64,000 bases of DNA from Escherichia coli (GCF_045037415.1 NZ_CP173438.1); one strand, 5' to 3'; shown: positions 15,001-18,000, numbered from the stretch's first letter. A program made the numbers.

Positions 15001-18000
15001 TTTCACTGGACGCTCAAGCGAAGCTGCATGTACCGCGCTCCCCATTTCATCGCTACGAAAGAAGGGCGGTTCTTCCGACGCATAGGCGACCAGCTGCACG
15101 CCTGTTTTCGGTGCTTGCTGCTGTAACAAACGTGCCAGTTCGAGTAATCCTGCCACACCGCTGGCGTTATCATCCGCGCCCGGCGTATAGGTCAATTGAT
15201 CGTTTTCGTAACTACTGACAGAGTCATAGTGCGCACCAATAATAATCAGCGGTCCATCGGCAGGACCATAATTAGCAACAATGTTTTTGTAGGGGCCACC
15301 CGTAATGGGGATATCCTGCGCGGTAACTCTGGCACCGCTACTGATAAAGACCTCTTTTATATACTCTGCGGATCTATTCAGATTATCAATATTGTCGGCG
15401 CTACGTGGATGCACAGTTTGTGTAAGATAACGAACTGTTTTTTCTAATTGCTCAGGACTAGCGTGTCGGGGCGTTGGTGGTAATGCATTCACCCAGGGTT
15501 GGTAAAAAATAATCAGAGGGAGTGAAAATAGAAATAATATAATAAAAGCAAAATTTATTTTTTTCATATGCAAATTATTAATGGGTTGCGTTGTTGAATC
15601 ATTATTTGTTATGGGTTTCGATATTGTATTTTATTAAGATTAGCAGGATTATACAAAGAGTGTATTTTATGTCGGGGCCCTGAGTTTATTTAAAAGGATT
15701 TTATATGCGAAATAAAAATATAATCATGTTGCTTATAAGTAGTTTGATTTTGTCAGGATGTGGGCCGGAACCTGAGGATAAGAAAAGTCAGCAACAACAA
15801 TCTACTACACCCACTGACCAGCAAGTGCTTGCCGCGCAACAAGCGGCAACAAAAGTGGCTGAGCAAAGCGCCGCCAAAGCCGCTGCAGACGCGAAAGCCT
15901 TAGCCCAGCAAGAAGTGCAACAATATTCAGACAAACAGGCTTTGCTGGGGCGATTGCAGGCGGCTCCAAAATATCAACATGCAGCCAGAGAAAAAGCAGC
16001 CTCCCAAATCGCAAATCCAGCAACCGCTCGCTACCAGCAGTTCGATGATAATCCGGTTAAGCAGGTAGCGCAAAACCCGTTGGCGACGTTTAGCCTTGAC
16101 GTCGATACCGGCAGTTATGCGAATGTGCGGCGTTTCCTTAATCAAGGGCTGTTACCTCCGCCAGACGCTGTGCGGGTGGAGGAGATAGTCAATTATTTCC
16201 CGTCTGACTGGGATATCAAAGACAAACAATCTATTCCGGCCTCTAAGCCAATACCTTTCGCTATGCGCTACGAATTGGCACCTGCACCCTGGAATGAACA
16301 GCGAACATTGCTGAAAGTTGATATCCTGGCGAAAGATCGCAAAAGTGAAGAGTTACCCGCTTCTAATCTGGTCTTTCTTATCGACACGTCTGGTTCAATG
16401 ATTTCTGATGAACGTTTGCCACTTATCCAGTCTTCGTTGAAATTATTGGTCAAAGAACTTCGTGAGCAGGATAACATTGCCATCGTGACCTACGCTGGCG
16501 ACTCTCGTATTGCGTTGCCTTCTATCTCCGGTAGTCACAAGGCGGAAATTAATGCTGCAATTGATTCGCTGGATGCAGAAGGCAGTACCAATGGCGGTGC
16601 CGGGCTGGAGATGGCTTATCAGCAGGCAGCGAAGGGGTTTATTAAAGGTGGTATCAATCGCATTTTATTGGCCACTGACGGTGACTTTAACGTTGGCATT
16701 GACGATCCAAAATCGATTGAATCAATGGTCAAAAAACAGCGTGAGTCCGGTGTTACTCTGTCGACGCTTGGCGTGGGGGATAGCAATTATAACGAGGCAA
16801 TGATGGTGAGAATTGCCGATGTTGGTAACGGCAACTATAGCTACATTGATACCCTCTCAGAGGCGCAGAAAGTGTTGAACAGTGAAATGCGGCAGACGTT
16901 GATTACCGTAGCAAAAGATGTCAAAGCGCAAATTGAGTTTAATCCCGCGTGGGTAACGGAATACCGTCAGATAGGTTATGAAAAGCGCCAACTTAAGGCA
17001 GAGGATTTTAATAACGACAACGTTGATGCGGGTGATATTGGCGCAGGTAAACATATAACATTGTTATTTGAATTAACGCTGAAAGGGCAAAAAGCATCAA
17101 TTGATAAGTTACGCTATGCCCCGGATAACAAATCAGCGAAATCGGACAAAACAAAAGAACTTGCCTGGTTAAAGATTCGTTGGAAATCCCCACAGGGAAA
17201 AGAAAGTCAGTTAGTTGAATTCCCGTTGGCATCTGCAATAAAGGCACCTTCAGAAGATATGCGCTTTCGCGCAGCAGTGGCTGCATATGGGCAAAAGTTA
17301 CGCGGTTCTGAATACCTGAACAATACCTCCTGGCAGCAGATCAAACAGTGGGCTCAGAAGGCAAAAGGGGAAGATCCACAGGGTTACAGAGCGGAATTTA
17401 TTCGCCTGATTGGACTGGCGAAAGATCTGGACAATTCACAAAACTAAAAATGATAATTCTGTTTGCCTGATATCGACATCAAACGTATCCGGCAAACAGA
17501 TGAAAAAATGTCAAATAAATGTGTTGGTATCGTTAAATTAATCTGCTAACTAACCACCGCTTTCGACTTAAATGCTAAACACCGCGAAATCATTCGCCAG
17601 TTCAGTCGCCGGGAAAATTGACCGACATTCACGTAACAGGTGCTGACAACCTTTGTCATCATAGCGTGAGCTGACGTGGGTAATGATTAGCTTACCGACT
17701 CCAGCCTCACGGGCTAGTGCCGCCGCCTGGCGTGTAGAACTATGGCCGCGACTGTTGGCTTTGGCCTCCATCGCCATATCCAGAGTCGCTTCGTGAACCA
17801 TTACGTCGACGCCTTTAGCAAGCTCCAGCGCGGCATCGCAGGGGCCGGTATCGCCGAAAATAGCGAGCGCTTTACCCGGCACTGGAGCGGCTAAGTAATC
17901 TGCGCCATTAATCTGCCTTCCATCATCCAGCATGATTGTTTTGCCCGCTTTTAATTCCTGAAACAGCGGGCCAGGCGGCACGCCAGCAGCTTTTAATGCC

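Follow-up and report, generated by a model that had tools for sequence, protein, structure and literature searches.

We analyze the junction between the convergent genes yfbK and rbn in a phylogroup-B2 Escherichia coli genome. The deubiquitinase gene elaD, which occupies this position in K-12, is absent from it. The junction is the B2-type, elaD-free allele, and we consider it probable that its spacer is old and not the residue of a deletion, that elaD was gained elsewhere, and that the hairpin encoded in the spacer is a transcript 3′-end element.

ElaD is a CE-clan deubiquitinase and a relative of the Salmonella effector SseL. Its activity as a deubiquitinase was shown in the work to which a preliminary description of this DNA alludes and which reported elaD in K-12 and intestinal pathotypes and its absence from CFT073, UTI89, APEC O1 and the other extraintestinal pathogenic E. 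coli (ExPEC) examined (Catic 2007, PLoS One 2:e381, PMC1847702). That report has since been refined by a survey that detected elaD in 353 of 530 strains, failed to find it in any strain of phylogroup B2 (ST131 and ST95 included) or G among those examined, and suggested that it was lost in B2 (Wang 2025, Front Microbiol 16:1681308, PMC12575377). The absence of elaD from ExPEC and B2 is already known and published, and the restriction of the gene to non-B2 strains has so far been read as a pathotype-linked loss.

The elaD-free junction and its distribution

The window, that is, the whole 64,000-nt stretch of DNA analyzed here (GCF_045037415.1 NZ_CP173438.1), comes from a phylogroup-B2 E. coli and carries the elaD-free yfbK-rbn allele typical of that lineage. 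Over the junction stretch used as query (window positions 16948-18067) it is 100% identical to ST131 genomes and 99-99.5% identical to UTI89, Nissle 1917 and an O6:K2:H1 strain. The features of the region are as follows.

15705-17447, + strand: yfbK, encoding a 580-aa vWA-domain protein, stop codon at 17445-17447 (ORF list and RefSeq annotation of an identical genome)
17421-17564: B2-type allele-specific segment, 144 bp (blastn breakpoints against K-12)
17448-17567: 120-bp spacer that separates the convergent genes yfbK and rbn, 35% GC, without annotated feature or ORF
17458-17500: inverted repeat/hairpin, arms 17458-17467 and 17491-17500, 10 bp perfect
17568-18485, - strand: rbn, encoding RNase BN / RNase Z, 305 aa (TIGR02649, ORF list and RefSeq annotation)
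18550-19011, + strand: elaA, encoding a GNAT acetyltransferase (NF007644 match)

The rbn product scores 670.9 bits against the TIGR02649 model for true RNase BN (cut-off 563.7), and ElaA and ElaB, the products of the genes next after rbn, match their own equivalogs. The preliminary description had yfbK and rbn converging across 120 bp, and the ORF coordinates and the RefSeq annotation of a genome identical over 16948-18067 agree on this, the latter with nothing annotated inside the gap. In K-12 the gene order is yfbK, elaD, rbn, with elaD (1,212 bp) on the opposite strand at exactly the position where its absence had been remarked upon. That absence is confirmed by the ORF list, by the RefSeq annotation and by a tblastn search of the 64-kb window with K-12 ElaD as query, which gave no match (best E-value 0.2).

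Absence was established both in the 64-kb window and at the level of the lineage, where the whole-genome check proposed earlier was carried out on 5,426 complete E. coli genomes. Any elaD DNA is found in 4,477 of these, and the contiguous yfbK-spacer-rbn junction in 914-917. When the 144-bp segment was joined to elaD and used as a single query, 5,391 genomes were retrieved, exactly the sum of 4,477 and 914. The two sets are therefore disjoint, and no genome with the B2 spacer has elaD anywhere, on chromosome or plasmid. All strains with the junction that can be placed belong to B2 (O25b:H4-ST131, UTI89, Nissle 1917, ATCC 25922, DSM 30083, NU14 and APEC O18). The published polymorphism concerns the same locus and the same observation, and the count of 914 in 5,426 genomes agrees with it, but the two earlier studies recorded just the presence or absence of elaD and gave no description of the junction, which here is a distinct spacer allele common to another Escherichia lineage.

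Two types of spacer in Escherichia

In blastn alignments, homology between the window and K-12 ends at 17420, 27 nt ahead of the yfbK stop codon, and restarts at 17565, three bases short of where the rbn stop codon begins, this codon thus adjoining the right breakpoint; the corresponding positions in the K-12 locus (L001) are 3504 and 4998. The window has 144 bp between the breakpoints, as against 1,493 bp in K-12 that comprise the end of yfbK and elaD with a spacer on either side. From 17421 on, the final 9 codons of yfbK are specific to the allele, the protein ending in ...GLAKDLDNSQN-stop here and in ...ELADGVTDISQ-stop in K-12. Neither K-12 spacer is significantly similar to the 144-bp segment, which also has no homolog in the 4,477 elaD-positive genomes, so that it is not collinear with the sequence flanking elaD where the gene is present. 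Among the 5,426 E. coli genomes it is confined to the 914 that lack elaD, and database matches outside these 914 all end at query position 41, within yfbK. The alignment of the spacer to K-12 and ExPEC genomes recommended in the preliminary description gave a spacer different from both K-12 spacers and matching B2/ExPEC junctions at 99-100%; spacer identity among B2 genomes is at least 99%. Two stretches of residual K-12 homology were judged to be chance matches, one of 16 out of 18 nt in the elaD-rbn spacer (AGATGAAAAAATGTCAAA) and the other an 11-mer (TTCTGTTTGCC) inside the elaD coding sequence, where ANRNCYL is encoded.

Only two Escherichia outgroup lineages entered the comparison, L004, a GTDB species representative labelled E. 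coli, and E. albertii, and this small number counts against the argument from outgroups. Nucleotide identity between L004 and the window is 84-88% in rbn, elaA, elaB and menF, and E. albertii, at 79-89%, lies at about the same distance. The L004 spacer is homologous to the 144-bp segment (local alignment score of 177, against 17 ± 2.6 for shuffles), from which it follows that the junction is not missing from earlier-diverged lineages: L004 has both the spacer and its inverted repeat. Over 120 nt the L004 and B2 spacers differ by 18 substitutions and one indel (about 85-86% identity), which is about the same divergence as in rbn (86.5% identical), and the yfbK remnant of L004 has the B2-like ending ...GLVEGLNNSQN-stop. 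The best 120 matches among protein relatives of YfbK were near-identical B2 variants only, and the contigs encoding the L004 Rbn protein all presented the same structure.

In E. albertii and Pseudocitrobacter, too, rbn adjoins yfbK without elaD. The E. albertii spacer gives no alignment with the B2 spacer. It aligns with the left and right spacers of K-12 when these are joined and the elaD ORF is removed; the score of 39, compared with 16.9 ± 5.3 for shuffles and matched in 1 of 1000 of them, corresponds to a short and moderately significant alignment. The GC content of elaD is 35.4%, against 47.2% for yfbK and 50.8% for rbn. On sequence comparison, the spacers fall into two types: type B, present in B2 and L004 and never linked to elaD, and type A, which is empty in E. 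albertii and carries elaD in most E. coli. Given these two types and its low GC content, elaD looks like an insertion into the other, E. albertii-type spacer allele, whereas the B2 spacer has the look of an intact allele that dates back at least to the separation from the L004 lineage. Judged by these alignments, the 120 bp between the genes are old and intact and are not the scar of an elaD deletion.

The inverted repeat downstream of yfbK

The 10-bp perfect inverted repeat noted in the preliminary description is present, with TCTGTTTGCC at 17458-17467 and GGCAAACAGA at 17491-17500. Its arms extend to 15 nt, 14 of them complementary (17458-17472 and 17486-17500), around a loop of 13 nt (23 nt counting perfect arms only). 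RNA from either strand folds into a stem of 10 bp, which a 1x1 mismatch separates from 4 bp and 2 more pairs, with an 8-nt terminal loop, at -20.4 kcal/mol for the + strand and -20.9 kcal/mol for the - strand (z-scores of -5.4 and -5.7). The hairpin starts 10 nt past the yfbK stop and 67 nt past the rbn stop. On the rbn strand the stem is followed by AUUAUCAUUUUUAGUUUUG, where five of the 8 nt counted from one base beyond the stem are U, and on the yfbK strand by UGAAAAAAUG, which contains no U-tract. The stem has only 50% GC in its core and is interrupted by the mismatch. In a separate observation, a 19-nt imperfect inverted repeat formed by the 3′ ends of yfbK and rbn is explained by the similar codons that the two genes have close to their C-termini.

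When the spacer is resampled with a first-order Markov model, 101 of 20,000 sequences (0.5%) contain a perfect inverted repeat of at least 10 bp, and the whole window contains four such repeats (loop 3-40) where 2.2 ± 1.6 are expected. Taken alone, the repeat is only mildly unusual; it goes beyond chance because of its placement, the stability of its fold and its conservation in another lineage. In L004 none of the 20 positions of the core arms has changed, an outcome with a probability of about 0.04 at 15% divergence, and a T-to-A substitution at 17457 makes the stem one pair longer. No compensatory substitutions were found in the stem between B2 and L004, and it is conservation and position, rather than covariation, that speak for a 3′-end hairpin.

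A strong hairpin lies immediately 3′ of yfbK in each of the allele types, with folding energies of -34 kcal/mol in K-12 and -29 kcal/mol in E. albertii (86-90-nt windows). The hairpin in the K-12 yfbK-elaD spacer (L001, around 3551-3586) and that of E. albertii have the same position and the same presumed role as the B2 hairpin, but they are unrelated to it in sequence; they resemble each other, having the core CCAGTCAGCA in common, and define the other spacer type. Hairpins and bidirectional intrinsic terminators occur between convergent bacterial genes. The B2 element is like them in being a stable stem-loop between convergent stop codons, predicted to fold in both transcripts, with a U-rich tail on the rbn side; it is unlike them in its mismatched stem with a core of 50% GC and in the lack of a U-tract on the yfbK strand.

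We infer that the hairpin is a transcript 3′-end element. The preliminary description had proposed that the repeat could be a terminator, a reading that is plausible but unproven: the interrupted stem, with its core of only 50% GC, and the yfbK strand without U-tract argue against it, as does a consensus promoter/terminator scan of the spacer, which did not call the hairpin and returned nothing above chance. Most likely, the stem-loop would form in both transcripts and act as a weak intrinsic terminator for rbn, on account of the AUUAUCAUUUUUAGUUUUG that comes after the stem, and as a protective 3′-end hairpin or pause site for yfbK.

Two other accounts of the repeat have to be weighed against a role at transcript ends. 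It could have no function at all, being a chance palindrome in an AT-rich spacer that is kept because the allele is young within B2; with the spacer at least 99% identical in B2, conservation in that group is uninformative, the window has four such repeats against 2.2 ± 1.6 expected by chance, and the repeat has neither a canonical terminator call, nor an Rfam family, nor compensatory changes in its favor. We hold this account to be unlikely, though deserving of a real minority share of belief, given the 0.5% chance of such a repeat within the 120-bp spacer, the fold z-scores, the intact arms and lengthened stem in a lineage that has diverged at 18 sites and one indel, and a position 10 nt past a stop between convergent genes that recurs in the K-12 and E. 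albertii hairpins. It could, instead, derive from a mobile or repeated element (REP/BIME, MITE, IS terminal repeats), as its end or as what is left of it, or be a protein operator, as its palindromic nature, its place in a structurally variable locus and the IS1 insertions nearby in some genomes might be taken to indicate. This is scarcely credible for a sequence found in a median of one place per genome, and at most two, across the 5,426 genomes, where REP/BIME and MITE elements would have many copies per genome; the window has a single match, and so does each of four loci carrying the B2 spacer type. No direct repeats flank the inverted repeat, no transposase is adjacent, and Rfam 15 covariance models gave no match at E ≤ 1 on either strand of 17300-17700.

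Origin of the elaD-free allele

The B2 background also contains a second structural allele. In E. coli 536 (B2) and about 117 other genomes (e.g. GN4738), a 111-nt remnant of the 5′ end of elaD is present in the order rbn, 187-bp K-12-type elaD-rbn spacer, elaD remnant, yfbL, and yfbK is gone, which sets this allele apart from the B2 junction. The arrangement explains the 'pseudogene' entry for strain 536 (Catic 2007, PMC1847702). Assignment of the GN4738 type to phylogroup G was considered and rejected, since strain 536 (B2) has the same allele and the type must be, at least partly, a B2 sublineage. The flanks of the 536-type allele are 98-100% identical to the window, on the left up to about 15100 and on the right from the rbn stop on. 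An elaD remnant on B2-identical flanks implies that elaD was once in a B2 background and that alleles have been shuffled by recombination, which speaks against a simple view in which B2 never had elaD. The same B2 background thus carries two structural alleles, of which one came by recombination.

The 5′ region of yfbL in the 536-type allele is 94% identical to FDAARGOS_1370 (yfbK-less and elaD-positive), compared with 85-87% to others, and its elaD remnant is 3-4% diverged from every intact elaD allele. The yfbK alleles of B2, K-12 and WP5 are about 93% identical to one another and 84% identical to that of E. albertii, and in the last 150 nt before the break the B2 and K-12 genes are 97.4% identical; on this evidence, the B2 yfbK is an ordinary, native E. 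coli allele. Because the B2 yfbK is ordinary and the 536-type yfbL 5′ region resembles FDAARGOS_1370, the 536-type allele is the one more likely to be recombinant; the 3-4% divergence of its elaD remnant speaks for the opposite. On the other side of the junction, the B2 elaA, linked to the elaD-free junction, is 82.7% identical at the nucleotide level to every other E. coli allele sampled. Identity between B2 and other E. coli is 88-94% at the rbn 3′ end and 75-87% in elaA, against about 97-98% in the surrounding nuo/arn genes, and the divergent block on the elaA side is sharply bounded at about 18468-18968. Raised divergence around the junction would be expected of alleles long kept apart.

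The suggestion in the preliminary description that the repeat might be a deletion or insertion scar does not stand, the 144-bp segment being unrelated to the elaD flanks and the same spacer and repeat occurring in a divergent lineage. A history in which a K-12-like ancestor lost elaD in B2, with the repeat marking or produced by the junction, draws on the presence of elaD in most E. coli phylogroups, on a published discussion that favors B2 loss and on the true deletion in the 536-type sublineage of B2, which leaves an elaD remnant. After such a deletion, K-12-type sequence would be expected to the left and right of the junction, and what is found instead is unrelated sequence, the final 9 codons of yfbK included; a lineage about 14% divergent also has this spacer and repeat, at the divergence of its flanking genes; and the actual deletion allele, that of the 536 type, looks wholly different. 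We regard this history as very improbable. It is also possible that the B2 ancestor had elaD and that the main B2 lineage exchanged the yfbK 3′ end and spacer by homologous recombination with another Escherichia lineage. The 536-type remnant on B2-identical flanks fits such an exchange, its distance from all elaD alleles is compatible with long residence in B2, and the unusual divergence of the B2 rbn 3′ end and elaA is such as an imported or long-isolated haplotype would show. We nonetheless find an exchange of this kind rather unlikely: the only other known carrier lineage is 85% identical in the spacer, which argues against recent import from it, the B2 yfbK is normal to the left of the break (97.4% over the last 150 nt and 93% overall), and the resemblance of the 536-type central segment to FDAARGOS_1370 makes 536 the likelier recombinant. 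Even with replacement of this sort elaD would have been lost, yet the spacer would still not be a scar.

Our preferred reading is that the B2 spacer would be the intact old region between the convergent genes, since the same type and its repeat occur in a divergent Escherichia. A low-GC elaD would have inserted into the E. albertii-type spacer, giving rise to the allele of K-12 and most other E. coli, and this elaD-bearing allele would have taken the place of the B2 form of the spacer and of the final 9 codons of yfbK. The direction proposed here is thus a gain of elaD elsewhere rather than a loss in the lineage of the window. In its stronger form, the main ExPEC/B2 lineage would never have lost elaD; the gene would have been acquired horizontally into the E. 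albertii-like member of two ancient alleles, and B2 would keep the elaD-free allele that predates E. coli. For this stronger form we see the chances as evenly balanced. As a further observation on this reading, the B2 allele is common to a cryptic Escherichia lineage, and the rbn-elaA haplotype linked to it diverges as far as one from a different species would.

The additions made here are that the spacer is not a scar, that there are two old spacer alleles, and a proposed direction of the event; in all other respects the feature is ordinary, known biology, and its residual interest is evolutionary, residing in that direction and in the two alleles. For practical use, the 144-bp B2 segment, found in 914 of 5,426 genomes and never together with elaD, is a clean single-locus marker. 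Since the B2 junction appears intact and old and elaD appears to have been inserted in the other allele, our results suggest a gain of elaD in intestinal and commensal lineages, later shuffled by recombination, over a niche-driven loss in ExPEC. If the stronger reading is true, it would turn round the published interpretation of loss in ExPEC and make the locus a long-lived trans-species structural polymorphism.

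Structural alleles at the yfbK-rbn junction

Besides the elaD-less arrangement of the window, phylogroup B2 includes a third structural allele, in which yfbK and most of elaD have been deleted. Exemplified by E. coli 536 and GN4738, and present in about 117 complete genomes, this allele keeps a 111-nt remnant of the elaD 5′ end together with the K-12-type elaD-rbn spacer, and its flanks are 98-100% identical to those of the window. Outside this allele, O157:H7 EDL933 and FDAARGOS_1370 carry elaD and are wholly missing yfbK, with yfbL (frameshifted in EDL933) followed, after about 400 bp, by elaD; like elaD, then, yfbK is present in some genomes and absent from others. 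In one ST131 genome (2017_APHA), yfbK is interrupted by IS1 near its junction with rbn.

Structural variants and an inverted repeat at the junction
L093 (E. coli 536), 6337-6691, and L002 (GN4738), 4699-5003: 536-type allele
L087 (O157:H7 EDL933), 3590-4000, and L084 (FDAARGOS_1370), 3621-4000: elaD-positive loci without yfbK
NZ_CP051615.1 (ST131 strain 2017_APHA), 1079334-1081230: IS1 in yfbK
Window, 17408-17426 and 17589-17607: 19-nt inverted repeat, 84% complementary

The inverted repeat pairs the 3′ end of yfbK with the 3′ end of rbn, spanning the allele-specific segment; in K-12 the 10-mer TGAACTGGCG occurs in both of these genes. Such a repeat could favour rearrangement, but the pairing is probably a coincidence arising from similar codons.

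Neighbouring polymorphisms in the window

Window, 18468-18968: divergent block comprising the rbn-elaA intergenic region and elaA
Window, about 13974-13989: site of the missing K-12 DNA, between nuoN and yfbM

Compared with all the other E. coli alleles sampled, the B2 allele of elaA, a GNAT acetyltransferase gene, shows only 75-87% nucleotide identity (82.7% over the whole gene, with 133 of 153 amino acids identical), a divergence equal to that of elaA in other Escherichia species. The non-B2 alleles sampled in E. coli are 96.5-100% identical among themselves. The edges of the divergent block are sharp, and the adjoining elaB is 99% identical.

A second indel polymorphism lies 3.5 kb away from the elaD site: yfbN, yfbO and yfbP, which occupy about 2.56 kb in K-12, are absent from the window at nuoN/yfbM and, among the fetched genomes, likewise from 536, EDL933 and FDAARGOS_1370.

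The rbn 3′ flank beyond E. coli

The lineage of comparison loci L004, L089 and L090, labelled E. coli at NCBI, is probably a cryptic Escherichia clade; its rbn, elaA, elaB and menF show only 84-88% nucleotide identity to E. coli, and all that is left of its yfbK is about 110-150 nt from the 3′ end.

L011 (Salmonella enterica subsp. diarizonae), 6858-7988, and L020 (Superficieibacter), 7001-8002: CheV-like gene

This gene lies directly downstream of rbn in both genera and, judged by eye from its sequence, was recognised as CheV-like, with apparent CheW and receiver domains. The same position in Escherichia holds elaD or nothing, so the rbn 3′ flank is variable across Enterobacteriaceae.
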